Origin: an uncultured Eubacteriales bacterium
GTDB taxonomy: Bacteria > Bacillota > Clostridia > RGIG6154
NCBI GenBank assembly: GCA_964568815.1
Contig: CAZMRY010000001.1
Location: forward strand, 14,055-78,054
Length of the DNA: 64,000 nucleotides
Reading direction: 5' to 3'
The position numbers and the translations under genes are program-made. Shown piece after piece: positions 20,889 to 49,599 of the stretch. Below the pieces are notes generated by a model. The model worked only from the letters and a program-made list of their open reading frames with translations. It searched no databases and had not been told where the DNA came from. Within the stretch, counting starts at the first letter, position 1; the number at the start of each line of letters is the position of its first letter.

Positions 20889-20917
20889 TTGACAAATCAA
20901 TCTGAATGTGATAGAAT
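20889..20917 (+). promoter_or_regulatory. consensus sigmaA promoter for T-box leader 1
   Basis: TTGACA (20889-20894), a 17-nt spacer, then TAGAAT (20912-20917). Confidence 0.7.
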
Positions 20918-20924
20918 ATCTCCA

Positions 20925-21205
20925 ATTTAAACGCTGAGATGCGGAATAGTACGCAAAACACTTTCGCCTTGAGAGAGGTGCCGGTTGCTGCGAGGCATTG
21001 GGAAAGATTTGCAGAACTCACCGCGGAGCGGTTGCCGTGAACTAACAGTAGGGGCAAACGGGAACTCCCGTTACAGAGTTAAGATGTGTTAGCATCTAAG
21101 GTGCATTCTGAGCGAATGAAGAAGAGTGGTACCGCGGAAACGAAATTATAGCGTTTTCGTCTCTTTGAACCAACAGAGAGATGAAAGCGCTTTTTTGTTG
21201 GTTAT
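20925..21205 (+). promoter_or_regulatory. T-box riboswitch leader
   Basis: Conserved T-box sequence GAGTGGTACCGCGG at 21124-21137. The stem I elements cttGAGAGAGgtgccggttgctgcgaggca are shared with leader 2. An imperfect terminator (gcgttttcgtctctttg...caacagagagatgaaagcgc plus TTTTTT) ends at about 21200. Confidence 0.8.
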
Positions 21206-21239
21206 AGATATTACCTGTTATTTGAAAGGAGTTTTTAAA

Positions 21240-22628
21240 ATGAACAAAATTAACATTACAGACATTACCCTTAAAAAGCTTTCAGCAGAGCGTGAAGTAG
21301 CGCTTCTTTTCCGTGAAAAAACAGCAATTGCTGTTTGCGCTGATAAGCTTGGTGCAGATGCAATAGAGCTTGCTCCTGTGAAAAATCTTCGTGAAGATAC
21401 TATTATTTACAAAACTATTGCTCAAAATGTTGAAAATGCAACCGTTGCCATTCCTGTAGGCTTTAGTGCAGAGGAAGTTGCTGCAGCCTGGGAATGTGTC
21501 AAAGATGCTAAAAAACCTCGTCTTCAGATTGAGGTTCCTGTATCTACAGTTCAGATGGAATATACTTATCACATTAAAGCAGAAAAGATGCTTACCAAAA
21601 TTGGTGAACTTACAAAGTCTGCAAAAGATTTATGCAATGATGTAGAATTTTCTGCCCTTGATGCAACAAGAGCGGACATTGATTTTCTTATCAGTGCTGT
21701 AAAAGAAGCTGAGGCCAATGGTGCAAGCATTGTTACAATCTGCGATGACGCAGGTGCATCTCTCCCCGATTCTATTGCATCATTAGTTGAAAAAGTAAAA
21801 TCAGAAGTAAATATTCCTGTATATGTTCAGGTTTCTGATCGCATCAACATGGGTGTTGCATCAGCTATAGCATCTGTGCAGAAAGGTGCAGACGGTCTTA
21901 AATGTGCAATGGCAGGAAAAGATATTCTTTTAACAGGAGAAATTTCCGATGCAATTAAAGTATGTTTTGCAGAAACAGGTATTGAAACAAACCTCAACAC
22001 CACAAAAATTCACGCAAGCATTGATGAAATGCTTAGCCATATTAACCATGAAGCATACGAAAATGAAAACTCAGTAAGTGAAAAGAAAAAAATTCTTCTT
22101 GATGCTGACAGCACAATCGTTCAGGTTGCACAAGCTGCACAGGTTTTAGGTTACGAGCTTTCAGATTCAGATATTGGAAATGTTCATAAAGCACTTATTC
22201 GGATATGCCAGAAAAAAGATGCTGTCGGAGCAAAAGAACTTGAGGCTTTAATCGCAAGCTCTGCTATGCAGGCTCCTTCAACATATCATTTTGAAAGCTA
22301 TACAACAACAAGCAGTAATCTTACAAGCTCAATGTCACAGGTAACTTTAAAATGCAATGATGAAATTATTTGCGGTGTAAGTGCAGGTGACGGTCCTGTT
22401 GACTCCGCTTTCCGTGCTATCGAACAATGCATAGGACATCACTACGAGCTTGATGATTTCCAGGTTCAGTCTGTAACTGAAGGAAAAGAAGCTTTGGGTT
22501 CTGCAGTTGTAAGACTCAGAAATAATGGTAAGCTTTATTCAGGCAACGGTATTTCAACAGACATCGTTGCAGCAAGCATAAGAGCTTATGTAAACGCTCT
22601 TAACAAAATAGTATTTGAGGAGGCATAA
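21240..22628 (+). CDS. 2-isopropylmalate synthase homologue (LeuA/HMGL-like fold) with substituted catalytic motifs
   Basis: Collinear with LeuA: AAWECVKDAKKPRLQ vs AAWEAVKDAKNPRIH, and LCNDVEFSALDATR vs LCDDVEFSAEDATR. DTTLRDGEQ is replaced by TDITLKKLSAE, and the HxH metal site by QVS. The SD-supported start is 21240 (AAAGGAG+9), whereas the ORF track starts at 21126 inside the T-box terminator. Confidence 0.7.
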   Translation: MNKINITDITLKKLSAEREVALLFREKTAIAVCADKLGADAIELAPVKNLREDTIIYKTIAQNVENATVAIPVGFSAEEVAAAWECVKDAKKPRLQIEVPVSTVQMEYTYHIKAEKMLTKIGELTKSAKDLCNDVEFSALDATRADIDFLISAVKEAEANGASIVTICDDAGASLPDSIASLVEKVKSEVNIPVYVQVSDRINMGVASAIASVQKGADGLKCAMAGKDILLTGEISDAIKVCFAETGIETNLNTTKIHASIDEMLSHINHEAYENENSVSEKKKILLDADSTIVQVAQAAQVLGYELSDSDIGNVHKALIRICQKKDAVGAKELEALIASSAMQAPSTYHFESYTTTSSNLTSSMSQVTLKCNDEIICGVSAGDGPVDSAFRAIEQCIGHHYELDDFQVQSVTEGKEALGSAVVRLRNNGKLYSGNGISTDIVAASIRAYVNALNKIVFEEA

Positions 22629-22629
22629 A

Positions 22630-25089
22630 ATGAAAATTGTATTTTCAACCAAGAATGTAAATCGTGCATCTTTCCTTGATATATGCCGCTATGCTTACGA
22701 TTACGGATTTGAAGGCTTTGAAATACACGATGCAATAAAAGAACGCGGTCAGCATCACGACAGTATTTTGCGTCGTGACCGCACATCAGATGCTAAAAGA
22801 AAGCTTATAAACCGTAAACTTTCAGTTCCTGCACTTCGCATGCCTTATCCTGTTGAAAGTGCGGAAACTACATCAGAAATACTTGTAAAATATGTTGATA
22901 TGGCTGCAAATGCCGGAATCAGCAATATTATAGTGCGTGTAGAAGAAGAAACATCTTTTGATATATTAAACGAAAAGCTTGCAGATGCAGTTAAAGCAGC
23001 TGAAAAATCAGATGTTGGAATTTTATTTGAAACAGTTGGTTTTCTTTCAGACACAGAAAATGTTATAAAAATTATCAACCACTTCTCCTCTGCTGCAATC
23101 GGTGCATCATGGAATGTCAGAGGAACATATTTTGGTGCAGGTGAAACTGCAGAAACAACAATCAAAACACTTGGTGCATACATCAAATATGTCCGCCTTG
23201 GTGATATGAAAGACGGGAAAACAGTTTTAATCGGCGAAGGCGAACTTCCTGTTGAAAACTTAATCAATGCCCTTTCTTCACTTAACTTTGACGGATTTAT
23301 CTGTGCTGCATGGAATGAAGATATAAATGATGCGGATATTGTTTTAACACACTTTGCAAACTACATTTCTTCTCTTAAAAGAGAAAAGAAAACATATGAC
23401 CGTGCATATTACAACCGTTCAAAAACAGGTACTTATGTATGGAAAAAATATGATGTAATCGATGCAACTTTCTCTGATGTTCTTGACACTATGGTAGAGA
23501 ATTATCCTGACCAGTATGCATTTAAGTATCCTACCCTTGATTACACAAGAACCTATGAACAATTCCGTCGTGATGTTGACGAATGTGCTGCTGCACTCAT
23601 ATCACTCGGTGTAAAAGCAGGCGACCATGTTGCTGTATGGGCAACTAATGTTCCTGAATGGTACATTACTTTCTGGGCTACTACAAAAATCGGTGCTGTT
23701 CTTGTTACAGTAAATACTGCATACAAAATCCATGAAATAGAATATCTGTTAAAACAGTCAGACACTCATACTCTTGTTATGATTGAATACTGTAAGGATA
23801 TTAACTACAAAGAAATAATTCAGGAGCTCTGTCCTGAACTTGAAAATCTTACACCAGGTGAACCTCTCTATTCAAAAAATCTCCCATTCCTTCGCAATGT
23901 TGTAACAGCAGGCTTTTCAATGAATGGATGTCTCACATGGGAGCAGATGCTTTCGCGTTCTGCTTTAGTACCTCGTGAAGAAGTAAGAAGAAGAGCTTCA
24001 CTTGTTAAGCCTGACGATGTTTGCAATATGCAGTACACATCAGGTACAACAGGCTTTCCTAAAGGCGTTATGCTTACACATCGCAATATTGTAAATAACG
24101 GTAAAACTATCGGCGACAGAATGGATTTATCTACAGCTGACCGCATGATGATTCAGGTTCCTATGTTCCACTGTTTCGGCATGGTACTTTCTATGACCTC
24201 TATGATGACTCACGGCGGAACTCTCTGCCCTATCCCATATTTTTCACCGAAATCATCGCTCGCTTGCGTGAATGACGAAAAAATCACCTGTTTTAACGGT
24301 GTTCCTACTATGTTTATTGCTATGTTTAATCATCCTGATTTTGCAAAAACTGATTTCTCATATATGCGCACAGGTATTATGGCAGGTGCAAACTGCCCTG
24401 CTGACTTAATGCGTCGTGCTGCAGATGAAATGAATATGAAAGAAATTATATCTGTTTACGGTCAGACAGAGGCATCACCAGGATGCACAATGGGTGAAGT
24501 AAATGAAGACATCGACCATCGTGTTGAAACTGTTGGCAGTCCGTTTCCTGGTGTTGAATGTAAAGTTATTGACCCTGAAACAGGCGAAGAGCTTCCTGAT
24601 GGAGAGAGCGGTGAGTTTGTAGCCCGTGGCTTTAACATAATGAAAGGCTATTACAAAATGCCTGAAGCAACAGCACAGGCGATTGATGCTGACGGTTGGC
24701 TTCATTCAGGTGATATCTGTTGCAGAACTCCTGATGGTTATTACAAAGTAACAGGCAGACTTAAAGATATGATTATCCGTGGCGGTGAAAACCTCTATCC
24801 TCGTGAAATTGAAGAATTTTATCTGACAAATCCTAAGGTAAGAGATGTTCAGGTAGTTGGTGTACCTGATGAAAAATATGGTGAAGAATGTTGTGCATGG
24901 ATTATTCTTCACAAGGGTGAAACTGCTGACGAAAACGAAATGAAAGAATTTGGCAACGCATCAATTGCAAGACACAAGGTTCCTAAGTATTTCTTATTCG
25001 TTAAGGAATTCCCTATGAACGCTGCAGGTAAAATTTTAAAATATAAAATGCGTGACGAATCAACAGAAATTTTAGGTCTTAAAAAATAA
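22630..25089 (+). CDS. fusion protein: xylose-isomerase-like TIM-barrel domain plus AMP-dependent acyl-CoA synthetase/ligase (ANL superfamily)
   Basis: The N-terminal ~270 aa look like a sugar-phosphate isomerase/epimerase TIM barrel. The C-terminal part carries the AMP-binding motif YTSGTTGFPKGVMLTHRN and core motifs GQTE and GWLHSGD. The start ATG at 22630 sits after GGAGG and directly follows the upstream TAA at 22626-22628. Confidence 0.8.
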   Translation: MKIVFSTKNVNRASFLDICRYAYDYGFEGFEIHDAIKERGQHHDSILRRDRTSDAKRKLINRKLSVPALRMPYPVESAETTSEILVKYVDMAANAGISNIIVRVEEETSFDILNEKLADAVKAAEKSDVGILFETVGFLSDTENVIKIINHFSSAAIGASWNVRGTYFGAGETAETTIKTLGAYIKYVRLGDMKDGKTVLIGEGELPVENLINALSSLNFDGFICAAWNEDINDADIVLTHFANYISSLKREKKTYDRAYYNRSKTGTYVWKKYDVIDATFSDVLDTMVENYPDQYAFKYPTLDYTRTYEQFRRDVDECAAALISLGVKAGDHVAVWATNVPEWYITFWATTKIGAVLVTVNTAYKIHEIEYLLKQSDTHTLVMIEYCKDINYKEIIQELCPELENLTPGEPLYSKNLPFLRNVVTAGFSMNGCLTWEQMLSRSALVPREEVRRRASLVKPDDVCNMQYTSGTTGFPKGVMLTHRNIVNNGKTIGDRMDLSTADRMMIQVPMFHCFGMVLSMTSMMTHGGTLCPIPYFSPKSSLACVNDEKITCFNGVPTMFIAMFNHPDFAKTDFSYMRTGIMAGANCPADLMRRAADEMNMKEIISVYGQTEASPGCTMGEVNEDIDHRVETVGSPFPGVECKVIDPETGEELPDGESGEFVARGFNIMKGYYKMPEATAQAIDADGWLHSGDICCRTPDGYYKVTGRLKDMIIRGGENLYPREIEEFYLTNPKVRDVQVVGVPDEKYGEECCAWIILHKGETADENEMKEFGNASIARHKVPKYFLFVKEFPMNAAGKILKYKMRDESTEILGLKK

Positions 25090-25101: not shown

Positions 25102-25130
25102 TTGACAATTCAAAAGAACCGTTGTATAAT
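25102..25130 (+). promoter_or_regulatory. consensus sigmaA promoter for T-box leader 2
   Basis: TTGACA (25102-25107), a 17-nt spacer, then TATAAT (25125-25130). Confidence 0.7.
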
Positions 25131-25134
25131 AATC

Positions 25135-25420
25135 ACAAATTTGAATATCACAAAGAACGACTATGACGAAGACGGTCGGATTGTGAAGCCCTGAGAGAGT
25201 TGCCGGTTGGTGCGAGGCAAAGGTGAATCTTTCCAATGACCTATCACTTCTGAGTCGGAGGACCGAAAGGCAAAGCTGAGTAGACTCCTTCCGTAATGCT
25301 GCGTAAAAGCAAAGGACTTGATAGAGTCCGTAAAGTGACGGAATTTTTTCCGTAATTTGAGTGGTACCGCGGGTATAATAACTCGTCTCAAAAGAAATCT
25401 TTTTGAGACGGGTTTTTTGT
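25135..25420 (+). promoter_or_regulatory. T-box riboswitch leader
   Basis: TTTGAGTGGTACCGCGGG T-box sequence at about 25357-25374. The terminator cgtctcaaaag(aaatc)cttttgagacg plus GGTTTTTT spans 25384-25418. Stem I shares ccctGAGAGAGttgccggttggtgcgaggca with leader 1. Confidence 0.8.
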
Positions 25421-25463: not shown

Positions 25464-27761
25464 ATGGATTACAATTTAAAAGAAGTTGCAGGAAGAATCA
25501 GAGACCTCAGAGAAGCAAAAGGCTATACACCTGATGAGCTTGCTAAGCTTACTGGCGTAACTGTTGAGGATTACAAAATTCTTGAAGAAGGCGAAACTGA
25601 TTTCAGCTTCACTTTTATCTACAAGTGTGCAAAAGCTTGTGGTGTTGAAGTAGTTGATATTTTAGAGGGAACAAGTTCAACTCTTACATCATTTGCTATC
25701 ACAAGAAAAGGCGAAGGTCTTAAAATTATCAAAAAGCAAGGTGTTGTTTACAACAACTTAGCTCCTAAATTCAAAGATAAGCTTGCTGAACCTTTCCTTG
25801 TTAAATTCCCCTACCTTGCAGAAGAACAGAACGCTCCTATAAAGCTTAATTCTCATAACGGACAGGAATTTGATGTTATCGTTAAAGGATCACTTAAGGT
25901 TCAGGTTGGAAACCATGTAGATATACTCAACGAAGGCGATTCTATTTTCTATAACAGTATCATCCCCCACGGTATGATTGCAGTTAGTGAAGGAGGATGT
26001 GAATTCCACGCTGTTGTACTCAACCCACAGGATGGTCAGGTAAGTGAAGAATATCCTGAAGCTCCGTTTATTGCTGCAAAAGCTGCAGTTGTTCAGAACA
26101 AAACTGAAACAGTTGCAGATAAATTTATTGAATCATCCTATGATGAAAATGGTGTATTTAACGGAATTACATTCAAAAATGAAGATAAATTCAACTTTGC
26201 ATTCGACTGTGTTGATGCAATCGCTGAAAAGAATCCTGATAAACTTGCAATGATGTGGGTCGCAAATGACAAAACTGACCGAAAGTTTACTTTCGGCGAT
26301 ATGAAAAAATATTCTGCAAAAACTGCAAACTATTTTGAATCACTTGGTATCAAAAAAGGCGATACAGTAATGCTCGTTTTAAAGAGACATTATCAGTTCT
26401 GGTTCTGTATGCTTGCACTTCATAAAATCGGTGCTATTGCAATCCCTGCAACAAACCAGCTTGTTGAACACGATTTCACATACAGATATAAGGCTGCAAA
26501 GGTTAAAGCTATAGTTTGCACAGCGGATGGTGATGTTTCAACAGAAGCAGAAAAGGCTGCATCTGAGTTCCCTGGAATGATAAAAGTTCTTGTTGGCGGA
26601 GAAAAAGAAGGCTGGAACAACTTCAATGTTGAAATGGAAAGATTCAGCACACACTACTTCCGTAATGAAAACACTCCTTGCGGTGACGACCCGATGCTTA
26701 TGCTCTTTACTTCAGGAACAACAGGATATCCTCGTATTGCAACACATTCTTATAAATATGCATTAGGACATTATCCTACAGCTAAACACTGGCATAATGT
26801 TAACCCTGACGGACTTCACTTTACAATTTCAGACACAGGCTGGGGTAAAGCTCTCTGGGGCAAACTCTATGGACAATGGCTTTGCGAAGCAGCACAATTC
26901 ACATACGACTTTGACCGTTTCCATTCAGAAGATATTTTGCCAATGTTTGCAAAATACAATATCACAACATTCTGTGCTCCACCGACAATGTACAGATTCT
27001 TTATCAAAGAAGATTTATCACAATATGACCTTTCATCAATTGAGTATGCAACAACAGCAGGTGAAGCACTTAATCCTGAAGTATTTAACCAGTTCAAAAA
27101 AGCTACAGGGCTTACAATTATGGAAGGCTTTGGACAGACAGAAACAACACTTTCTATCGCAAACTTTGTTGGTACTACACCAAAAATCGGTTCAATGGGC
27201 AGACCAAGTCCACTTTATGATGTAGTAGTTTTAGATCCTGACGGAAAGGAATGTAAAACAGGTGATGCAGGTGAAATCTGTATCCGTACAAAAGAAGGTA
27301 CACCTTGCGGTCTCTTTATCGGCTATTACTTAGACGATGAGAAAACAAAGGAAGTATGGCACGACGGATACTACCACACAGGCGACCAGGCTACAATGGA
27401 CGAAGACGGATATCTCTGGTATGTGGGAAGAATTGATGATGTTATCAAATCATCAGGCTACCGTATCGGACCTTTTGAAATTGAAAGTGTTATTATGGAA
27501 CTTCCTTATGTTCTTGAATGTGCAATCACTCCTGTTCCAGATGAAGTTCGCGGACAGATTGTAAAGGCCACAATCGTACTCACAAAGGGTAATGAAGGCA
27601 CAGACGAGCTTAAAAAGGAAATTCAGGAATATGTTAAGACACATACAGCACCTTACAAATACCCAAGAATTGTTGAATTCGTTGACGAACTTCCAAAAAC
27701 AATCAGCGGTAAAGTAAGAAGAGTTGAAATCCGTAACAAAGACCTTGAGAAAAACAAATAA
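25464..27761 (+). CDS. fusion protein: XRE-type HTH plus cupin sensor domain (PuuR-like) fused to AMP-dependent acyl-CoA synthetase/ligase
   Basis: N-terminal HTH (LREAKGYTPDELAKLTGVTVEDYKILEEGE) followed by a cupin (GDSIFYNSIIPHGM). The ANL domain then carries FTSGTTGYPR, GQTE, YYHTGDQ and a C-terminal PKTISGKVRR. It is a continuous 765-aa ORF. Confidence 0.8.
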   Translation: MDYNLKEVAGRIRDLREAKGYTPDELAKLTGVTVEDYKILEEGETDFSFTFIYKCAKACGVEVVDILEGTSSTLTSFAITRKGEGLKIIKKQGVVYNNLAPKFKDKLAEPFLVKFPYLAEEQNAPIKLNSHNGQEFDVIVKGSLKVQVGNHVDILNEGDSIFYNSIIPHGMIAVSEGGCEFHAVVLNPQDGQVSEEYPEAPFIAAKAAVVQNKTETVADKFIESSYDENGVFNGITFKNEDKFNFAFDCVDAIAEKNPDKLAMMWVANDKTDRKFTFGDMKKYSAKTANYFESLGIKKGDTVMLVLKRHYQFWFCMLALHKIGAIAIPATNQLVEHDFTYRYKAAKVKAIVCTADGDVSTEAEKAASEFPGMIKVLVGGEKEGWNNFNVEMERFSTHYFRNENTPCGDDPMLMLFTSGTTGYPRIATHSYKYALGHYPTAKHWHNVNPDGLHFTISDTGWGKALWGKLYGQWLCEAAQFTYDFDRFHSEDILPMFAKYNITTFCAPPTMYRFFIKEDLSQYDLSSIEYATTAGEALNPEVFNQFKKATGLTIMEGFGQTETTLSIANFVGTTPKIGSMGRPSPLYDVVVLDPDGKECKTGDAGEICIRTKEGTPCGLFIGYYLDDEKTKEVWHDGYYHTGDQATMDEDGYLWYVGRIDDVIKSSGYRIGPFEIESVIMELPYVLECAITPVPDEVRGQIVKATIVLTKGNEGTDELKKEIQEYVKTHTAPYKYPRIVEFVDELPKTISGKVRRVEIRNKDLEKNK

Positions 27762-39833: not shown

Positions 39834-39860
39834 AGAGGAGCATTTCCGCTCCTCTGTTTT
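39834..39860. terminator. bidirectional rho-independent terminator
   Basis: agaggagc(atttcc)gctcctct is an 8-bp perfect stem with a T-run on the plus strand and an A-run upstream. It abuts the giant gene's stop codon. Confidence 0.65.
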
Positions 39861-42800
39861 AGTTTAGAAGGTTATATATTCTGTTAGCTCGGTTGAGTGG
39901 TACTCCGATTTTGCGAAGTCTTGATATTTTATCTACCTTCTTACTTCCCTTTCCATCCTTTTGACTATTCATAACCTTAGTCACATAATAGAAAGTTCTT
40001 GCATTCATAGAATTCTCACCATAGTTTTGAATATATGCGTCATATCCTGCCTGCTGATTTTCTGTAAGACTTGAGTAATAATATCCATCCACACTGCTAA
40101 AATCATATTGTGTTTTTGTTTCCCCAAACAACGCTATATTTACTTCTTGTTTTTCTTCAGGTGAAAGACTGTTGTCATTCGCAAGTGCTTCTCTCTTTAT
40201 AACTGAAAGTTCAGGCTCATATTCCCATTTTTCGTATACTTTTTTTGTTCTGCCATCTGTCATTGCGAAAAACTTTTCATATTTAGTTTCTTTGCTCACA
40301 TCATCATGCACATCATAATCATAATACAGTTTAGCAACCTTTTCAGGTGCAATACCAAAATCAATTAAATCCTGTGCTTTTTCTCTTTTACCTTTTTTGC
40401 CATCTTCACCTTTTGAGTAAAAGCTGATTTCTACTTCCGCCTTTTGTGATGGTGTAAGACCTTTGGTGCTTTCAAGTGTTTCGTGCCTTACCTGAGTTGA
40501 TGTTTTTGATTTGTCGCCGTCTTTTACGCTTTTAGCTTTGCTTGCAGCATTAATTGCATTGTATACATCAGTACGGCTTGTTTTTTTATCTTCTATAATT
40601 CTTTGATAAAGCTCTGTCTGTTCTGATGTCAGACTTCCAAAACCTTCCTCAACCCAACCACGAGAACCTTTTGTAGAACTTTTACCCCAAACTGTAGTTT
40701 TAATTGCATTACCAATGTTTTTGTCTATTGGATATTGCAGTTCTTCTTCACCTTTGTTATTAATTTTATAACTTCCACCTTTGTTGTATGCGTTAATACC
40801 TTCAACTGTCTTTTTGAGCTGTCCTGCTCCCGCCGGTAGAGTTCGATATGATAGAGGTACTACAAACTCGTTAAGAATAATATCCATTTTCTTTTTATTA
40901 CTAACCTTTTTAGGGTCACTAAATATTTTCACAAGCTCTGTTACATCGAACATGCCTGCAGATGCAGGGATTCTGCCGTCAGTTATAATTGATGTGAATG
41001 GTAAATCTTCCAAAACATTTACAACAGAATTTCCAATTGCAACAGCTGGATCTTCTGCTTCATCTTCAAGTTCAATCGCTCCTTCTTCAATTAACATTTC
41101 AATTGCATCAAAAGCATTAGGTACTCTAAGTTTTGTAAAATCATCAATTCCATCAAGAACAATACCAAGAGGGCTTTGTATTCCGTCATTACCAAACCAC
41201 TTTTCAAACAAATCAGCGAGCAATTCTGCAGCTAAACTATATTTGATAAATCTCCACGATGCTCTAACAATCGCTTCCGCCACTCCTTTAGAATCTTTCT
41301 TTGCATATCTGCTTAAATCTTTTGTGATGTTAGATATAAGATTGTTTGTTTCAAGCATATACTGTGTAATTACTTTACCGCTTTTCGAGTAAAAAAGGGT
41401 TGGCATACTTCCATAGCTTCGTCCACCTATAAGCTTTTTTGTATATGCATCCGCCTCTCTTATAGCCTCCTCACTTGGCATATTTCTTTTTACTATATTT
41501 TGATGATATCTTGCTCTCCAAATTAAGCCAGATGTTAGTGCATCTGTAAATTCAAGCGGTTTTCCTATTGCATCCAGAAAATGCTTTGGCTTAGACATCG
41601 TTTTAACTCTATCAGGATTTCCAACCTTAACTCTGTTAGTCAAGAATGTGCTCTTATCATCGAATCCGTCAGGTGTTTTTATATTCTTTAATGTGTGAAA
41701 TATACCATAAGCTAAATCAACGTATGAGAGTTCTTTTCTTGCTTGTGGAATAGTGGCAAAGTTCATAAACGGTGTTTTTGCATTTCCAACAATCATATTC
41801 GCTCCAATCTTACCTTGGAATCTGCTCCAATTTCTCAAAGTTCTTCGACCAAGATTATCTTCAACTACTCTATCCAAAAATCCTACTTGCTTACCTGCTA
41901 ATACATTTGCATATTTATCAAGATTAACAGCGTAGTTTCCAAGCTTATTTTTGTACCCTTCCTGAAGCTTTTCACTTATCTGTTTCAGTTTATCTTCATC
42001 TGTTAAAGTGTCATTCTCACCTATTTCTGCGATTTTCTCTTTAACACCGTCATCTGAATACTTGTATCTTATAGCGTTAGAAAAAGCTCGTACATTCTGA
42101 ATATCATCAGTATGGAAAATAACATCACAAACACCTGTAACATATTTTGCAAAGCCATCTATAGCATCATAGTCTGTAATACTATCTTTACTTCTATGAA
42201 GTGCATTTGCAAGCCATTTAATGCCGGGTTTTCGGTCTGCTGTTCTTCCCATTATTTCTGTAGGTAGACTTGTTACAGTATCAGACATAAAGAATTTATT
42301 CTCCAAATCAAAACCGAAAGCTCGTCCAAGTTCATTTAAGAATGAATCGCCTTTATTTTCAACAAAGTGTGGAAAATAATTTTTTCTGTATTCAACAGGT
42401 GCATATCCGTTCCTGATGCGAGCTTCATTCATCATTTCAAAAAGCTCGTTGTAAATCTTTCTGAATTCACCGATACACTTATCTATCTTGCCATAATCAA
42501 GCTTAGGATTTGCATCAATAAAAACATCTGCATCCCTTTTGAGCTGTGCAAGCTTCTCCCTGTCCTTCTCTATCCAGGATTTCTTACTGTTGACATTCTC
42601 TGCTTTTTGTGATACATTATCAGTGTGAACATCGTTATTCCAAACGTCTTGGACGTACATCTGAGGGACTTTACTGTCATTTAGAGCGGAATCGATGTTC
42701 CATTTTTTATTTATTGCATCTTTCAAGCCTGGAATATCCGGTATTGTTCCTGTAGAGACCTTTATCATTTGCTTATTTGAGAGAATTTTTCCTTTGTCGC

Positions 42801-45800
42801 TTATTGACTCCAAATAATATGTTACTCCATTATGTCTTTTAACATAATATATTCCTTCTTTACCATCAGGTCTCTTGAGATACAAAACGTCATCATAATT
42901 TTCTATAATATCCGGTATTTGTTTTTGGTCTTCAGCTGTAATCGGATATTTCTCCTTCGTAAGCTCTCCGTGTGAATTTTTAATATGCCTTATATCATTA
43001 TCATTCAAAGCATGAAATACATTTGAAACATCAATGCCATACTCTTTTTTTAAATCATTAATCAAACGTTTATTTACTTTTCCTATAATGATTTGTGCTT
43101 TTTGTTTAGGAAACAGATTATTATGTTTTACATTTGTTTCATGCGAATATCTATACGCATAATCGACATAAGATTCTATTTCTTCTTTAGTAGCAATATT
43201 TTTTCTTGTTCCGATGGTTTTATCAAATATTCCCTGTGCTTTTGTATCTTCTTGAATGTCCACTATCTCTCCATTGTCATACTTCGCAAGCTTTTCTTCA
43301 AGATATTCTATTTCGCCCTGCGTTTCTCCGAGAAACTGTACTGCATAAGCTTCACTGTGTTTGTTACCTTTTGCTACCTTTTGGCTAATTTCAAGTTTAT
43401 CAATATCATCAAGAAGCTTGTTTTTATATCTGTTGCTTTCAGCCTCATGAATGTCTATAGGTTCAAAAATCGCCTCTTTAATTGCATCCGCTTCTTCAGG
43501 ATTTGTTGTTATATCTTCTATATTTCTCTCCTGTGTTTCTGTAGCATAGCGAATACCTCCAAAAACTTTTTTGTCTTTCCAATTATCTGAATTTTCAAGA
43601 AGCTTTGTAATTCTTCCAATTCTTTCCGCTCTAACTTTTGTGTTTTCTTTTTTTATTTCTTTTTCAAGGGTTCTCACAGTTCCGTATGCTTCTATGTACT
43701 TATTTATGGCATCTGTATTTAAACCTAATGATTTAATCTTTTCAGACCTTATTGCTCCTGAAATAACCTTTTCCGCAATTTCTTTTTCTTCTTCGGTTAT
43801 GAGCAATTTTCCCATAATCTTTTCTGCGTTCTTTCTTGCTGAAGAAAGTTCACTATATGCGTTTCTAAGATATGCAACCTGTTCTTTTTCATTTCTTTCA
43901 ATCTCAACAGTTGGTTTTTCATCTGCAAGCGAATCATTAAAGTGCTTTACTTCATACAGATGGTCTTTGAATTCATATACTGCCTTTTCAAATTCGTGCT
44001 TTAAGTGTCCCTTTGCTTCATCTGTGTTATAATATGCATCAAGAGTTATTTCTTCTTTTCTTAAGCTGTCCGATACTTCCATTATCTTAAGCATACGGTC
44101 AGATGATGAAAGAATATCATCAGGGAACAGACTTGGGTGCATTTCGTTTAATTCCTGATATATACTGTCAACAGATGTTCCGCTTGTTGAAGAAACAGAA
44201 AGTCTTCCCATATATCTTCTTATGTCCTTAAAGAAATCAGGAATGTCAGCTGCAGACTCGCTGTCAAAGTAAATTTTGGTATTTCTTAGATAGTTTCTTA
44301 AATCTGCATATCCTTTATATGCTTCATCATTTACTATTTTACCGTTTTTATATGCTTCTTCAAAAAGTCTGTCAATGGTTTCCTGTGAAAGCTTGCCTGT
44401 CTTCATATACTCTGTTGACATTTCCTGAATTATAGGCTTTAAAAACTCTCTTGCAGTTCCAAGACGAACAGACATTGCATCTGCTACTTTTCTTACAGCA
44501 TCATTCTCATATCTTTCAAGTCTTGTTCTTGATTTAGCTGTTGACTGATATTCAGGTGCTGTTGTTTCGTTTTCTTCTGATATTACTGCTCCGAGTAAAT
44601 ATTTTTTGTCCTCTTGCATAGAATAATCATTGACAGTTTCCATAGACTGTGGTATATTGTCTATAGAGGTTGACTCATTTATATCTGAAGCACTATTTTC
44701 AGTGTGAGGTAGGTACGAGTCAACCTCTAAATTTATATCATAGAATACATTCCCAAATTTTGCTTTTCCAACTCTAACTACAGAATTAAAAATAACATTG
44801 TCAATTCTCACCTTCCCTCTATAATTCTCAAATCCGTTTTGTTTGAACAACTTATGATTTTTATGGTCTGGGCTTTGCCAATTCGCATTAGCATTCATAA
44901 GAAGGTCTTGAAGGCTGGGGACAAGACGCATTTTTTGATTAAACATTTCAGGATTGTTTTTAAGTAGCTCCGCACTTTCTTCACTGTGTGTAAACTCTTC
45001 TGCACTTAGTCGAATAAAAACAATTTCCTTTCCATTGTTATCTTTCACGGTAACTTTGTTATCACGATTTGCAATCAAATATGAATAAGCTGCATCTCTA
45101 TATTCCTCAGGTGTATTCAAACCTTTAAAAATATCTTTACCGGTCTCAACTATCCAAATGTCATTACCCTTATTGTCTTTCCCCTTATAAGCAGAATAGT
45201 TATCATCCGCAAACACCGTATCATCTCCACCGATATAAGGAACTGTCTTTTTAAGATATTCTTTATCCATTCCTTTTCTGTGAACAACTTCTCTGGCTTC
45301 AATCTCCCCGGCAGTCTTTTCATATAACCCCTGTGCAGTCATAGGTGTGTTATCATCAAGAAGAATAGATTCCTCAAATAAAGAATTGTCATATTCCATA
45401 AATAATAATCCGTAATCTTTATCCTCTGCAAGTTCATCATACAGTCTGTCAATTGTTTCAGGCTTTAGATTTCCGTTGCGTTGTGAATTGTAGTAATTTG
45501 AAACAAGTATTCTAAATCTGTCATCCATTCCTTCGTAAGCTTCTTTTCTCTGCTGTCTTAGTTCTAAAATTCTTCTTTCGTATTTACCTATCTTTCCTTC
45601 TTCTCTTAACTTGTTCTCCCAATAAGCAACACTTGAACCTCTTGCAAACCCTTCTATATCCTGAACTGCATGTTGCACTTCGTGTAGTAATGTATATAAA
45701 GTAAAGCTGTTATCCATTCCGTCTCTAATTGTTATAGTCTTGTTTTTTCTGTCATAGCTTCCGTATTCAGAAATATCTTTCTTAAACACAATTCTTAAAT

Positions 45801-48800
45801 CTTTCAACTGCGGATATGCCTCATAAAGTTCAGGATGGTCAAAATATGCTTCAAGCCTGTCCTGTGTACCTGCGTCAGGTGTTACCTTGCCATTTTGTGT
45901 GAAAGTATTACTCCAGATATTTTTAAGCTTTTCATATTCTTTCTTTTCTGCTTCAGTAAGCTCTCTTCCACCTTCCATTTCAAGAATGTATCTGTTCTGA
46001 ATATCAAGAAGCTCTCTGTATCTCGCATAATCAGGATGGTCTTTCTTAAATACAAGGTCGCCTTTTCTTACAAATCTTGCATTATCATCAGGAATTTCAT
46101 ATCTCCACCTTTTGTCTATTCCTTTATACCAACCTGTCTTTTTGAAGATTTCAGACTGCGGTTCGCCTTTAAGGTTCATTCGCCTTGCCTCTGCCAATGT
46201 CTTATTATTTGCTACAACAGAAGTCTCCCCGCCTAAAAGATGTTGTTTCCCATTACTTCCCTGTGCATCATTCTGACCTTTTTGCATATTATTAGTATTG
46301 ACATTTCCATTAGGATATGTTATTCTTTTTATAGAACCATAGTTGGTTACACCAAACGGCAATTGCAGCCTAGTCCGTGTAAGCCAATTATTGGTTCTTT
46401 TTATATTAGGCTCAACATAAAGAATATCGCTTGTATCTATAATGCTCTGCGTTTGTACAACACTATTAGGGTTATTATTTTTCCTACTATGAGTACTTAC
46501 AACCTTAATTTCATCAAGTACAACACCACTCTTGTCTTTTAATGGCAACAATTCCAAAACAGCCATTATTGGCAGTCCATCAGAATCATAAACCTCTCCA
46601 AACATAGTTATCCTGCTATCAAAACCTTTTGACTGCATAACAATTATTGGCTTCTCTAAAATCTCAGGCACCTGTTTAAGAATATCATCAGTCAAATAGC
46701 TATGTTTTTTTAATGATGTATTGATTTTGTTTGTGTCCCAGGTAATTTTTTGGTCTTTCACTCCAATGCTCTGCAATGCTGAAGATGTCGTTCCTATATT
46801 CAAAGACTGTCTATCAGGTCTCCCATTAGCAACCCAATTATCATAATCATTTACAAAGTTTTCATTAAGCAAATACCTCTTTTCTCCGCTCCCTTCTTTC
46901 GAAAATCTTACATTCCCCTCTTCGTCAACAAAAGGTGTTGCGTTTGAGTTGTCAATTGTTTTTCTTCTTTCTTTTAAGGCTCTGTCAAAGATATCAAGTG
47001 CTCTTTCGATATCACTTAAATCCTGTTCTGTACCTGTTATCGCGCTTTTAACCTTGTTATAAGCAGCTTTAAGAGCATTAAACATTCTTACTGCAACATT
47101 TCTGTTCTGCATTACAATTCTGTTTATGACCTTTTCATCAAGTCTTTTCATAGTAAAGTTGGCAACAAGCTCTTTGTCAATATCTTCTTTACCGCTGACT
47201 TTGTCGCCATATCTTTCAGCTATTGTGTTATATGCTTCTTTGTAGCTGTCTGTGTTTTCACCGCCATACATAATATCAAATGCAATCTTTTTATATGCAC
47301 TATACAAATCACTGTTTTCAATGTTATGTGTTACCTCGTGAAGTGCAACCATCGCACCGAGTCTTGTTTTAGCGTTTGCACTGTTTATGTGAATTACTCC
47401 GTCCTGTACAAATCCCATATTGTCAACAAGCTTTTTATTGCCCATTTCGTCTGTAACTTCAACCGCATCCAAATCTTCAATAACGATTTTTGAATTTGAA
47501 AGCTTTGCAAGACCTTCTATTACTTTAACAGGTGCAGAGTCAGGACTTAAAACCCAATCCTTTGAATATACTGTCACAAGTCCGCTTTTGCTTTGTTCAA
47601 GCTTAAGCCCTTTTTCAACATATCCGCCTGTTATTTCAAAAGGATTATGATTTTCAGACACAACCGAATGTTTAATAATCATACCCGCTTCTTCGTCTGT
47701 CAAAACTTTGCCATTTTCCATTTTCTGTTCAATACGATTAGCAAAATCAACAATTTCCGTATTTGTGCTATTCTTACAATATGTTACCGCATCCGCAATG
47801 TATTCATCAAATAGCTTAGCCTGTTTTACCGTTTTTCCTAACTCTGATGTGTTGACTGTGTCAACAGCATCTCTGTAGCTTGCAATTGCAGATTTAACTG
47901 TACCTGTGCTTCCTGCAGAAATGATAAATCCTGCAAGTGCTGATGATTTCATTTGTGCGAAATCTTCCTTTGTGTATGAAGCAAAATCAAAAGTTTCTTT
48001 CAAAAGTTCAATCGCAGATACTGTTTCACCTCTCTCTGCATGTTTGCCCGCAACAATTTCAGTTCCTGTTTGAAGGAATTCTTCCGCTCCTTCCCCAACA
48101 CCTTCTATTGCTTGTTTGCCTAAAAACTTCATACTGTTTACTGCAATCTGAGCACCTTTTTCGCTCATTTTTCCTTTTCTGAGAATTGCCATTATTCCGT
48201 CTTCGAGTTTTTCAGCCCCTATTTTTTTACTTACGGTTTTCCCTCCAAAGATAAGCTTATCCGCAATATAACTTATTCCAAACTCAAGTGTCGCTTCAAC
48301 AAGTGCTGTGTTTGTTGCAAGTGCTTTTATATCTTCTTCCGACATATCGCTATTTTGAAGAAGTTCTACATATTGACTTCCAACTGTTCTTCTGAACATA
48401 TCAGCTGACGACGCAGCTGCACCTCCTATTCTTGCTCCCGTTAACGGATTACCCATAAAGACACCCAGTGTCGCTCCTGCAAGCTGTCCCACTGCCTGTG
48501 CCTTTGATTGATTTATAAACTGTGGAGCATAGTTTGAAAGTGTAGAAACAAAAGTATCAAAAGCATTATTATCCGTATATGCCTCTTTGTTGTTTTCTCT
48601 TAATCTCTTGTCTAATTGCTGATACACTTCCGCTGCCTCAATATCATCAGTTGCATATTCCCAAGAGTTCGCACCTGTATCCGCAATCTTTTCTCCTATT
48701 GTACCGCTTTTAAAATTTGCTCCTATTCTTCCAAACAAGCCGTCATCATATTCATTATCTTTATTTTCATCATAATACTTATACGCCTTGATTTTATCAT

Positions 48801-49599
48801 CAGCAAGAACTATTTTACCTTCCGTTTTCATATTTCTGTCATATCTTGCCTGTTCATCTCCTACTCTCGCTTCAGAAAGAATACTTATAGGGCTGAACGA
48901 ATAATCTTTTTTATAAAAATTCTGCACCACACCATATTCATTCTTTTCTCTTTGCGCCTCAGATATTCCGCTCCTTGTGTCAACTTCTCCCTTTTTATTA
49001 AGATGCACGCCTTTCGTTTCATTTGCATTTAATATTCCAAGCACAGCATTATATTCTGCCGAAAGTGCATTAAGTCTGTTTCTTTTCCTGTCAAGTGTGC
49101 TGTAATAATTATAGGCTATTTTCTGTTCATCAGTTCCGTATCTCAACACATCAGGATTTGTTTTATATAGATTATATCCACTTTCTTCAACCCCTGTAAG
49201 CTGAGGTAATTGTGCAGTTTCTCTTTGTATCTGTGTAGCAAGCTCATTTTTTCTGTTAATAAAGAAATTCTTACTTCCGTAAGCAGGAATAGAACTGTCC
49301 CTTGTGCTTCTTCTCCAATTATACGCATCTTCATCTATAAAGCTTGATTTAAAGCCGTTATATATAACTTCGTTGTTATCTTTTTGATACTGTGCTTCTC
49401 TTTCTTTTTGTCTATTGTATGCTATGGCTTCAAGTGTTGTAGTTTGTTTCCTTTCAGTTTCAGGCACATAGGCAGTACCTGTTAGCTTTTGAAGATTTAT
49501 TGAATTTCCTTTTACAGGATTATTATAATTTATAACCGCTCCCTGATTTTTCTTCTCTATCTCTTTATTATATTTTAATACATCTGTCAGTTTCTTCAT
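39859..49599 (-). CDS. giant (3246-aa) phage/mobile-element polyvalent-type protein with two zincin-like HExxH motifs
   Basis: Uninterrupted 9.7-kb ORF containing AMVALHEVTHNIENSD and TLLHEVQHAVQDIEG (HExxH). It has long coiled-coil-rich linkers and lies in the same operon as the lysis and virion genes. Confidence 0.75.
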   Translation of the reverse strand: MKKLTDVLKYNKEIEKKNQGAVINYNNPVKGNSINLQKLTGTAYVPETERKQTTTLEAIAYNRQKEREAQYQKDNNEVIYNGFKSSFIDEDAYNWRRSTRDSSIPAYGSKNFFINRKNELATQIQRETAQLPQLTGVEESGYNLYKTNPDVLRYGTDEQKIAYNYYSTLDRKRNRLNALSAEYNAVLGILNANETKGVHLNKKGEVDTRSGISEAQREKNEYGVVQNFYKKDYSFSPISILSEARVGDEQARYDRNMKTEGKIVLADDKIKAYKYYDENKDNEYDDGLFGRIGANFKSGTIGEKIADTGANSWEYATDDIEAAEVYQQLDKRLRENNKEAYTDNNAFDTFVSTLSNYAPQFINQSKAQAVGQLAGATLGVFMGNPLTGARIGGAAASSADMFRRTVGSQYVELLQNSDMSEEDIKALATNTALVEATLEFGISYIADKLIFGGKTVSKKIGAEKLEDGIMAILRKGKMSEKGAQIAVNSMKFLGKQAIEGVGEGAEEFLQTGTEIVAGKHAERGETVSAIELLKETFDFASYTKEDFAQMKSSALAGFIISAGSTGTVKSAIASYRDAVDTVNTSELGKTVKQAKLFDEYIADAVTYCKNSTNTEIVDFANRIEQKMENGKVLTDEEAGMIIKHSVVSENHNPFEITGGYVEKGLKLEQSKSGLVTVYSKDWVLSPDSAPVKVIEGLAKLSNSKIVIEDLDAVEVTDEMGNKKLVDNMGFVQDGVIHINSANAKTRLGAMVALHEVTHNIENSDLYSAYKKIAFDIMYGGENTDSYKEAYNTIAERYGDKVSGKEDIDKELVANFTMKRLDEKVINRIVMQNRNVAVRMFNALKAAYNKVKSAITGTEQDLSDIERALDIFDRALKERRKTIDNSNATPFVDEEGNVRFSKEGSGEKRYLLNENFVNDYDNWVANGRPDRQSLNIGTTSSALQSIGVKDQKITWDTNKINTSLKKHSYLTDDILKQVPEILEKPIIVMQSKGFDSRITMFGEVYDSDGLPIMAVLELLPLKDKSGVVLDEIKVVSTHSRKNNNPNSVVQTQSIIDTSDILYVEPNIKRTNNWLTRTRLQLPFGVTNYGSIKRITYPNGNVNTNNMQKGQNDAQGSNGKQHLLGGETSVVANNKTLAEARRMNLKGEPQSEIFKKTGWYKGIDKRWRYEIPDDNARFVRKGDLVFKKDHPDYARYRELLDIQNRYILEMEGGRELTEAEKKEYEKLKNIWSNTFTQNGKVTPDAGTQDRLEAYFDHPELYEAYPQLKDLRIVFKKDISEYGSYDRKNKTITIRDGMDNSFTLYTLLHEVQHAVQDIEGFARGSSVAYWENKLREEGKIGKYERRILELRQQRKEAYEGMDDRFRILVSNYYNSQRNGNLKPETIDRLYDELAEDKDYGLLFMEYDNSLFEESILLDDNTPMTAQGLYEKTAGEIEAREVVHRKGMDKEYLKKTVPYIGGDDTVFADDNYSAYKGKDNKGNDIWIVETGKDIFKGLNTPEEYRDAAYSYLIANRDNKVTVKDNNGKEIVFIRLSAEEFTHSEESAELLKNNPEMFNQKMRLVPSLQDLLMNANANWQSPDHKNHKLFKQNGFENYRGKVRIDNVIFNSVVRVGKAKFGNVFYDINLEVDSYLPHTENSASDINESTSIDNIPQSMETVNDYSMQEDKKYLLGAVISEENETTAPEYQSTAKSRTRLERYENDAVRKVADAMSVRLGTAREFLKPIIQEMSTEYMKTGKLSQETIDRLFEEAYKNGKIVNDEAYKGYADLRNYLRNTKIYFDSESAADIPDFFKDIRRYMGRLSVSSTSGTSVDSIYQELNEMHPSLFPDDILSSSDRMLKIMEVSDSLRKEEITLDAYYNTDEAKGHLKHEFEKAVYEFKDHLYEVKHFNDSLADEKPTVEIERNEKEQVAYLRNAYSELSSARKNAEKIMGKLLITEEEKEIAEKVISGAIRSEKIKSLGLNTDAINKYIEAYGTVRTLEKEIKKENTKVRAERIGRITKLLENSDNWKDKKVFGGIRYATETQERNIEDITTNPEEADAIKEAIFEPIDIHEAESNRYKNKLLDDIDKLEISQKVAKGNKHSEAYAVQFLGETQGEIEYLEEKLAKYDNGEIVDIQEDTKAQGIFDKTIGTRKNIATKEEIESYVDYAYRYSHETNVKHNNLFPKQKAQIIIGKVNKRLINDLKKEYGIDVSNVFHALNDNDIRHIKNSHGELTKEKYPITAEDQKQIPDIIENYDDVLYLKRPDGKEGIYYVKRHNGVTYYLESISDKGKILSNKQMIKVSTGTIPDIPGLKDAINKKWNIDSALNDSKVPQMYVQDVWNNDVHTDNVSQKAENVNSKKSWIEKDREKLAQLKRDADVFIDANPKLDYGKIDKCIGEFRKIYNELFEMMNEARIRNGYAPVEYRKNYFPHFVENKGDSFLNELGRAFGFDLENKFFMSDTVTSLPTEIMGRTADRKPGIKWLANALHRSKDSITDYDAIDGFAKYVTGVCDVIFHTDDIQNVRAFSNAIRYKYSDDGVKEKIAEIGENDTLTDEDKLKQISEKLQEGYKNKLGNYAVNLDKYANVLAGKQVGFLDRVVEDNLGRRTLRNWSRFQGKIGANMIVGNAKTPFMNFATIPQARKELSYVDLAYGIFHTLKNIKTPDGFDDKSTFLTNRVKVGNPDRVKTMSKPKHFLDAIGKPLEFTDALTSGLIWRARYHQNIVKRNMPSEEAIREADAYTKKLIGGRSYGSMPTLFYSKSGKVITQYMLETNNLISNITKDLSRYAKKDSKGVAEAIVRASWRFIKYSLAAELLADLFEKWFGNDGIQSPLGIVLDGIDDFTKLRVPNAFDAIEMLIEEGAIELEDEAEDPAVAIGNSVVNVLEDLPFTSIITDGRIPASAGMFDVTELVKIFSDPKKVSNKKKMDIILNEFVVPLSYRTLPAGAGQLKKTVEGINAYNKGGSYKINNKGEEELQYPIDKNIGNAIKTTVWGKSSTKGSRGWVEEGFGSLTSEQTELYQRIIEDKKTSRTDVYNAINAASKAKSVKDGDKSKTSTQVRHETLESTKGLTPSQKAEVEISFYSKGEDGKKGKREKAQDLIDFGIAPEKVAKLYYDYDVHDDVSKETKYEKFFAMTDGRTKKVYEKWEYEPELSVIKREALANDNSLSPEEKQEVNIALFGETKTQYDFSSVDGYYYSSLTENQQAGYDAYIQNYGENSMNARTFYYVTKVMNSQKDGKGSKKVDKISRLRKIGVPLNRANRIYNLLN

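Follow-up and report, generated by a model that had tools for sequence, protein, structure and literature searches.

The retention of a pseudoenzyme as an accessory or regulatory subunit is a known principle. HisZ, an inactive paralogue of histidyl-tRNA synthetase (HisRS), is the regulatory subunit of the short-form ATP phosphoribosyltransferase HisG, and both the complex and its inhibition by histidine have been shown experimentally. IlvN and IlvH are small ACT-domain regulatory subunits of acetohydroxyacid synthase, which bind a branched-chain amino acid and regulate the adjacently encoded partner. Here we analysed a 64,000-nucleotide (nt) stretch of the genome of an uncultured Eubacteriales bacterium (GenBank assembly GCA_964568815.1, contig CAZMRY010000001.1; hereafter, the window), in which the first gene after a T-box leader encodes a protein with the fold of 2-isopropylmalate synthase (LeuA) that has lost the catalytic residues of that enzyme (hereafter, dead LeuA). 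The dead LeuA family and its pairing with an acyl-coenzyme A (CoA) ligase are what is new here.

HisZ appears to be the closest functional analogy. Like HisZ, dead LeuA is a selected, non-catalytic paralogue, and its active counterpart recognises the pathway amino acid; it is encoded with what would be the first committed enzyme, and end-product feedback inhibition is proposed for it. It differs in fold and ancestry, in that complex formation and inhibition are here predicted rather than experimentally established, and in that its partner is an ANL-family ligase of a putative salvage route rather than an enzyme of a de novo pathway. The likeness to IlvN and IlvH lies in the proposal that a separate polypeptide feedback-regulates an enzyme encoded next to it, whereas IlvN and IlvH are small, are not derived from a pathway enzyme and carry no dead catalytic barrel. 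In architecture the reference is type I bacterial LeuA, with which dead LeuA shares an HMGL-like triosephosphate isomerase (TIM) barrel, a linker and a LeuA_dimer regulatory domain. Unlike LeuA, it has neither the metal ligands nor the RDGEQ, GERAGN and AFAHxSGIHQ(D/H)G motifs, is about 45 residues shorter, and its gene does not sit among leuABCD genes but essentially always beside a fusion of a TIM barrel with an acyl-CoA ligase (hereafter, TIM::ligase).

The metabolic parallel is found in rumen bacteria, for which the carboxylation of isovalerate to leucine and the conversion of phenylacetate to phenylalanine are established physiology (Allison 1962, 1966, cited in PMC7356843). The locus resembles the isovalerate route in its gut-anaerobe habitat, ruminants included, in the predicted steps of acid activation, reductive carboxylation and transamination, and in the leucine-starvation control predicted for it. 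As far as it is covered by that source, the classical isovalerate work is physiological and based on labelling, and names no LeuA-like protein, TIM-fused ligase or T-box. Ligases that form CoA esters of short branched or aryl acids include MbcS, the methylbutyryl-CoA synthetase of S. aureus, and PaaK. Homologues of both occur near the dead LeuA operon under Ile-type and UUC-type T-boxes, respectively; unlike the dead LeuA pair, these ligases have no LeuA-like partner, and the one in the Ile unit carries an N-terminal HTH-cupin module instead. The curated family models and literature that we searched contained nothing on this LeuA pseudoenzyme family or its ligase pairing. The literature searched likewise yielded no T-box-controlled isovalerate ligase and no 'isopropylmalate synthase regulatory domain' protein, only the background on isovalerate carboxylation.

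Dead LeuA has the fold of LeuA without its catalytic machinery

An earlier note on this DNA, made from the sequence alone, had described a full-length LeuA-fold pseudoenzyme with a good Shine-Dalgarno sequence after a T-box, and all of this was borne out (Table 1). Pfam assigned residues 4–227 to HMGL-like (PF00682, 8e-29) and residues 331–457 to LeuA_dimer (PF08502, 1.3e-32), and the peptides AAWECVKDAKKPRLQ and LCNDVEFSALDATR, which the note had quoted as collinear with LeuA, are found in the translation. An AlphaFold2 model had a predicted local distance difference test (pLDDT) score of 85.8 overall and above 90 through the barrel; only residues 271–283, the short replacement loop described below, fell under 50. 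Foldseek overlaid the barrel on the LeuA catalytic domains 3ewb and 3eeg with a target-normalised TM-score of 0.90 and a root-mean-square deviation of ~2 Å, and matched the whole chain to Mycobacterium tuberculosis LeuA, including the leucine-bound entry 3fig. The fold matches also included 4lrs and 1nvm, the aldolase of aldolase-dehydrogenase complexes. M. tuberculosis LeuA was reached at 13% identity, and the family profile matched the regulatory domain of the Leptospira interrogans citramalate synthase (3f6g) only weakly (E 3e-4, 49 residues). The protein was far under the cut-offs of all NCBIfam models for LeuA, CimA, NifV and homocitrate synthase; the best LeuA model, NF002086, gave 237 bits against an equivalog cut-off of 532.

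Residues were mapped by pairwise phmmer alignment to 3rmj (Neisseria meningitidis LeuA), 3ewb and 6e1j, by MAFFT alignment with 17 real LeuAs (including Escherichia coli b0074) and through the family profile, and family-wide counts were made on 63 sampled members. The three alignments agreed. The DTTLRDGEQ motif aligns to D8-I-T-L-K12-K13-L-S-A, so that Lys13 takes the place of the metal-binding Asp; the HxH metal pair is replaced by Q197-V-S199, the conserved Glu of the EDA motif by Leu140, and the GERAGN loop is replaced and shortened. No RDG or HxH occurs in the corresponding strands. These results confirmed the motif substitutions described in the earlier note and showed, by the alignment with LeuA that it had proposed, that the residues are lost and not shifted. 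A further loss had escaped it: the block NKAIVGxNAFAHESGIHQ(H/D)GVL...YEIMxPExxG of ~35 residues, present in every real LeuA, is deleted, and a short variable loop stands where this part of subdomain I would be. The deletion explains the length of 462 residues against ~510 in LeuA.

The losses extend across the family. The block and the GERAGN motif were absent from all 63 members; the metal-Asp column held Glu, Gln, Lys, Ala and others but never Asp (0/63); His was found at the first HxH position in 9 of the 63 members and at the second in none, and no member had the metal triad. The lost catalytic and metal positions vary across the family, with no new fixed set of residues. The non-catalytic framework residues D8, T10, S102, D141, R144 and D169 are retained and near-invariant, and the claim that every motif is substituted was thus slightly overstated. 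Three residues at former pocket positions are conserved specifically in the family, i.e., T166 (N167 in E. coli LeuA), C168 (P169) and K221 (E226). Dead LeuA is predicted to lack Claisen condensation activity on acetyl-CoA and 2-oxoisovalerate.

A widespread family in which the regulatory domain is most constrained

Relatives of dead LeuA are encoded by 386 stretches of GTDB species genomes, which answers the earlier suggestion to check the conservation of the paralogue in related genomes. More than 120 clusters formed at 90% identity were 78–100% identical to the window protein, nearly all of 462 residues, and came from ruminant-gut metagenome-assembled genomes (MAGs) of Clostridia and Oscillospiraceae, where they are named 'hypothetical protein'. 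Among 1.8 billion 50%-identity representatives, 277 clusters matched at E ≤ 1e-30. RDGEQ, HxH and GERAGN were missing from each of more than 100 full-length representatives (453–497 residues, 28–49% identical); true LeuAs, with 504–516 residues and intact motifs, appeared in the same search only from ~205 bits downward. Of 8000 candidates scored with the family profile, 7115 reached E ≤ 1e-30; they came from Clostridia, Bacillota and Synergistaceae, and the best 120 matches were all 458–485 residues long. The names on the listed profile matches were 'alpha-isopropylmalate synthase regulatory domain-containing protein', 'hypothetical protein' or, wrongly, '2-isopropylmalate synthase'. The 63 family members and the 17 real LeuAs fell on opposite sides of one split of a neighbour-joining tree, as for a monophyletic family. 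Overall, the family spans 28–86% identity and ~455–495 residues.

All 76 close homologues that were compared aligned without gaps over residues 1–461, with no frameshifts. The ratio of nonsynonymous to synonymous substitution rates (dN/dS, Nei-Gojobori) among them was lowest in the regulatory domain (0.042), against 0.108 in the barrel and 0.105 in the linker; these values are qualitative because dS was ~1.4. Compared with real LeuAs, the distribution of constraint over the three parts is inverted. Mean pairwise identity was 0.39, 0.33 and 0.63 in the barrel, linker and regulatory domain of the dead LeuA family, and 0.59, 0.53 and 0.43 in those of real LeuAs. The columns that are invariant (≥94%) in real LeuAs were kept in at least 80% of the family at 22 of 78 positions in the barrel, 4 of 15 in the linker and 11 of 15 in the regulatory domain, which is ~40% identical to that of real LeuAs. 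G462 of E. coli LeuA, which was changed to Asp in the allele used for feedback-dysregulated LeuA (G462D; PMC6345581), aligns to G420 of the window protein, and Gly is found there in 98% of the family. The inverted constraint and the kept equivalent of G462 indicate that it is chiefly the leucine-regulatory domain that selection has preserved. Sequence conservation of this kind supports a pseudoenzyme under purifying selection rather than a decaying pseudogene, and the earlier judgement that decay is unlikely is upheld by the gapless homologues, a dN/dS of ~0.1 and a family of thousands.

Five short proteins (P0240, P0245, P0246, P0256 and P0257) joined a LeuA_dimer domain, 50–60% identical to that of the window protein, to unrelated N-terminal fragments of the types MFS, TGT, Response_reg, MBOAT and 7TMR-HDED. 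They were considered as Rosetta-stone evidence and discarded as most likely assembly chimeras. Tandem LeuA-family genes were found in L160 (9995–13097) and L147 (9962–13097). The first copy in L160 has partly degenerate motifs (DTTLSEGEK, SARCRDDLG), yet clusters with real LeuAs; catalytic erosion may have set in here independently.

Dead LeuA is paired with a TIM::ligase fusion

Gene order was profiled in 80 GTDB species loci (L001–L080; hereafter, close loci) and in loci from metagenomes and assemblies (hereafter, diverse loci). The dead LeuA gene is followed by the TIM::ligase gene in every close locus whose contig extends past it, and in 67 of the 68 diverse loci that continue for 300 nt or more beyond it; the sole exception has a weak TIM-domain start within its 341-nt tail. 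The pairing with the ligase, whose conservation the earlier note had proposed to check, is thus essentially invariant. Stop and start codons of the two genes overlap in 32 of 67 loci; in the window the start codon lies 1 nt past the dead LeuA stop, with its own Shine-Dalgarno sequence inside the dead LeuA gene. Real LeuAs from the same scan never had a TIM::ligase neighbour.

The partner protein has 819 residues. Its ligase domain is PRK12583-like (673 bits), contains AMP-binding and AMP-binding_C domains, and has intact adenylation motifs (TSGTTG, GQTE, SGD, GRLKD and AGK) with the catalytic Lys. It is 93–97% identical across the 80 close species, whereas its TIM domain and dead LeuA are 70–89% identical; where dead LeuA falls to 35–53%, the ligase domain is still 68–83% (mostly 70–78%) identical. 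Such constraint on the ligase domain is unusually strong for a metabolic enzyme.

The N-terminal TIM domain was modelled from database fragment sequences with a pLDDT of 91, and its best match in the Protein Data Bank (PDB) was UlaE (3cqj, TM-score 0.78), with ketose 3-epimerases also matched. In the clade of the window, its canonical Glu/Asp/His/Glu metal site is degenerate (FET / WNVRG / VRLGD / CAAW), the ligands having changed from D to N, H to R, H to R and E to A; this is beyond what the earlier note had seen. Many other lineages have an apparently intact site (ET / WDxHH / VHxxD / SLEW), and in further lineages it is partly lost by other changes (E to K, E to V; L083, L085, L092 and others were compared). 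From its sequence, the fused TIM domain thus looks like a second, lineage-dependent pseudo-domain. When the TIM domain by itself was used for a profile search, every match was a piece of the fusion cut off at a contig end, which gives no evidence for a free-standing ancestor.

T-box control and operon context

The leader upstream of dead LeuA scored above the Rfam gathering threshold, as expected from the T-box control claimed in the earlier note, and carries a leucine specifier. In most lineages the gene has such a leader with a Leu specifier. Among the 74 close loci with a leader, the specifier is CUC in all but two, L060 (CUG) and L040 (CCC). Distant loci, including one from a Synergistaceae genome, have CUC or CUG at the same position, and a Leu codon was thus read in every specifier except that of L040. 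The CCC (Pro) specifier in L040 (leader at ~1816–2058) may reflect an error of sequencing or assembly, or else a genuine switch. We infer from the specifiers a Leu-class T-box that would be induced by leucine starvation, i.e., by uncharged tRNA-Leu.

In distant members (~42% identity), the operon goes on with a class IV branched-chain aminotransferase (BCAT) and a 1175-residue PFOR-type 2-oxoacid:ferredoxin oxidoreductase, a context that the earlier note did not have. Among 73 diverse loci, 15 have BCAT (Aminotran_4) next to the pair and 8 have the PFOR-type gene there; BCAT also adjoins it in 5 close loci. Both are in one operon with the pair in L083, L084, L085, L124 and others.

Next to the dead LeuA operon, the window has a second T-box unit with an isoleucine specifier, and the HTH-cupin::MbcS-like unit adjoins the operon in many of the 80 close loci. 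Its product is putatively a 2-methylbutyrate ligase, the isoleucine-salvage counterpart, in which the HTH-cupin module may be a built-in sensor or regulator that stands in for the LeuA-like partner. In other close loci, UUC-type (Phe) T-boxes precede 435-residue PaaK-like phenylacetate-CoA ligases near the dead LeuA operon, which suggests salvage of phenylacetate to phenylalanine. Given the T-box specifiers, the ligases and the rumen physiology described by Allison, the most economical reading is that acid CoA ligases under amino-acid T-boxes serve salvage by reductive carboxylation, and that the window operon is probably a leucine/isovalerate salvage unit.

An Amidohydro_2 gene (PF04909) with intact HxH/H/H/D metal motifs lies directly beside the pair in ~22 loci, in some with overlapping stop and start codons; in three close loci, it overlaps the dead LeuA start in place of the T-box. 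The 64-kb window has no Amidohydro_2 gene. Near the operon, further T-boxes preceded 508–516-residue membrane proteins similar to sodium:solute symporters, on the minus strand of L002 (13733–13526), L005 (9509–9307) and L032 (16441–16235). Elsewhere in the window, the minus strand at 39859–49599 holds a single open reading frame (ORF) of 3246 residues.

Table 1 Features of the dead LeuA operon, the adjoining unit and related loci. Positions are those of the window unless a locus is named.
Feature	Position	Strand	Details
Putative operon promoter (consensus match)	20889–20917	+	TTGACA-17-TAGAAT with TG, sigma-70-like; 11/12 consensus matches; 10 nt upstream of T-box
T-box leader	20927–21167	+	RF00230, 124 bits against a gathering threshold of 93 (Rfam)
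Specifier CUC (Leu), followed by A	21017–21019	+	GAA-CUC-A directly 5' of the Stem I base 3' strand
Intrinsic terminator	21150–21197	+	18-bp stem and T-run (hairpin with T-run at 21150–21191); overlaps antiterminator/T-box sequence
Shine-Dalgarno sequence of dead LeuA gene, GAAAGGAG	21224–21231	+	Direct sequence reading
Dead LeuA ORF	21240–22628	+	ATG at 21240, stop 22626–22628, 462 residues
Dead LeuA residues 1–262	21240–22025	+	HMGL-like TIM barrel without metal site or catalytic residues
Dead LeuA residues 263–330	22026–22229	+	Shortened linker; ~35-residue AFAHxSGIHQ(D/H)G block deleted
Dead LeuA residues 331–462 and stop codon	22230–22628	+	LeuA allosteric/dimerisation domain, most conserved part
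Partner residues 1–270	22630–23439	+	Xylose-isomerase-like (ketose-3-epimerase-like) TIM barrel; PF01261, 5e-12
Partner residues 271–819	23440–25089	+	ANL-family acyl-CoA ligase, putatively isovalerate-CoA ligase
Second unit, promoter	25102–25130	+	
Second unit, T-box	25154–25393	+	Specifier AUC (Ile) at 25243–25245
Second unit, terminator	25380–25414	+	
Second unit, HTH_3 + Cupin_2 + MbcS-like acyl-CoA synthetase	25464–27761	+	765 residues; NF047394 (MbcS) 453 bits, below cut-off of 850
UUC T-box and PaaK-like ORF	L006: 5352–5602, ORF from 5778		
UUC T-box and PaaK-like ORF, further loci	L011, L026–L029, L042, L054, L056, L063, L066		
Amidohydro_2, upstream of pair	L077: 7156–8004; L068, L053, L134, L121		
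Amidohydro_2, downstream of pair	L018, L065, L107, L108, L070, L072, L048, L028, L040, L026, L073, L047, L045, L052, L062, L145, L097		

A possible leucine-sensing subunit and the alternatives

The explanation that we favour, to which we give a probability of roughly 45%, is that dead LeuA is a leucine-sensing accessory or regulatory subunit of an isovalerate ligase, in an operon that salvages isovalerate to leucine. Uncharged tRNA-Leu would switch the operon on through the T-box, the ligase would activate isovalerate to isovaleryl-CoA, the PFOR-type oxidoreductase would reductively carboxylate this to 2-oxoisocaproate, and BCAT would turn the latter into leucine, along the classical rumen route of isovalerate carboxylation. 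Dead LeuA would dimerise via its regulatory domains and bind leucine there as LeuA does, and may dock on the ligase, plausibly barrel to barrel on its N-terminal TIM domain. With leucine bound, it would inhibit isovalerate activation, the first committed and ATP-consuming step; such feedback would form a fast layer over the transcriptional control by the T-box, as LeuA gives to the de novo pathway. The suggestion in the earlier note of an amino-acid-sensing partner of the ligase is strengthened by the high constraint on the regulatory domain and by the Leu specifiers, though not proven by them.

Several observations weigh against a leucine-sensing subunit. A regulator would not obviously need a barrel and linker of 330 residues under purifying selection, and the conserved T166, C168 and K221 could point to a ligand site or a chemistry that has newly arisen. 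The PDB contains no full-length type I LeuA that includes the regulatory domain, nor one with bound leucine, from which the residues of the leucine pocket could be mapped. The apparently intact Glu/Asp/His/Glu site in the TIM domain of many other lineages is not accounted for by the proposed scheme, in which the recurrent Amidohydro_2 neighbour has no role either. Isovalerate as the putative substrate is read from context only; neither a BCAT nor a PFOR homologue is present in the window, and at the Rfam threshold no T-box was detected in a number of distant loci.

Some of these observations would fit a remodelled barrel that binds isovaleryl-CoA or 2-oxoisocaproate, or that has a new metal-independent activity, and acts in carriage, channelling or proofreading between ligase, oxidoreductase and aminotransferase. 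Some HMGL-like relatives pass intermediates directly on to CoA-dependent partners, as the aldolase of aldolase-dehydrogenase complexes does, and such proteins are among the fold matches of dead LeuA. The selection on the barrel, its confidently predicted fold, the near-invariant framework residues and the three new conserved pocket residues are consistent with this role, and the Amidohydro_2 neighbour hints at extra chemistry. However, the metal and 2-oxo-acid positions are variable without a new fixed set, the HxSGIHQ(D/H)G subdomain is deleted, and conservation is lower in the barrel half of the protein; we consider an intermediate-binding barrel less likely than a leucine-sensing subunit.

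A structural scaffold blind to leucine, which would oligomerise the ligase or tether the PFOR-type enzyme via the LeuA dimerisation domain, would account for the invariant pairing and the frequent translational coupling. LeuA_dimer is by definition a dimerisation module, and the two degenerate TIM barrels of the window clade could form an interface. The regulatory domain is, however, conserved beyond the usual need of dimerisation, in its mean identity as in its dN/dS, and keeps most residues that are invariant in leucine-regulated LeuAs, the equivalent of G462 among them. As the pathway is also leucine-specific, a mere scaffold is unlikely.

It is more improbable that the metal-less LeuA barrel, the epimerase-like TIM domain and Amidohydro_2 are not regulators but enzymes of an unrecognised pathway that builds the leucine skeleton from a short branched acid. 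The remodelled T166/C168/K221 pocket would then carry out a new reaction on isovaleryl-CoA or 2-oxoisocaproate that needs no metal and, in part or altogether, no ferredoxin oxidoreductase. The Amidohydro_2 neighbour and the intact TIM metal site in other lineages leave room for such chemistry; the loss of the TIM metal ligands in the window clade, which we count in favour of the leucine-sensing subunit, argues against a need for the accessory TIM barrels in catalysis.

If the catalytic residues had only been displaced by the alignment, the protein could be an active LeuA, CimA or homocitrate synthase. An active enzyme could explain the two significant Pfam domains and the '2-isopropylmalate synthase' label that some pipelines give to relatives, but it is effectively excluded by the agreement of three independent alignments and the missing catalytic block, in line with the low NCBIfam scores and the real LeuAs without a ligase neighbour. 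A lineage-specific decaying pseudogene, chance ORF or annotation artefact, for which nothing but the loss of catalytic residues speaks, is refuted by the breadth of the family, its constant length, the lack of frameshifts and a dN/dS of ~0.1.

Implications

The formation of leucine from isovalerate in rumen and gut anaerobes has been known since the 1960s, and its genes and control are poorly defined. The locus described here provides a concrete, conserved candidate gene set, i.e., a Leu T-box, dead LeuA, a TIM::ligase and, in some lineages, BCAT together with a PFOR-type oxidoreductase. It occurs in hundreds of bacterial species from the guts of ruminants, termites and humans. The '2-isopropylmalate synthase' labels that some pipelines assign to family members would be corrected, which affects predictions of leucine prototrophy in MAGs. 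If dead LeuA senses leucine for the ligase, an allosteric domain would have outlived its own enzyme and come to control an unrelated one that bypasses part of that pathway, in parallel to HisZ.

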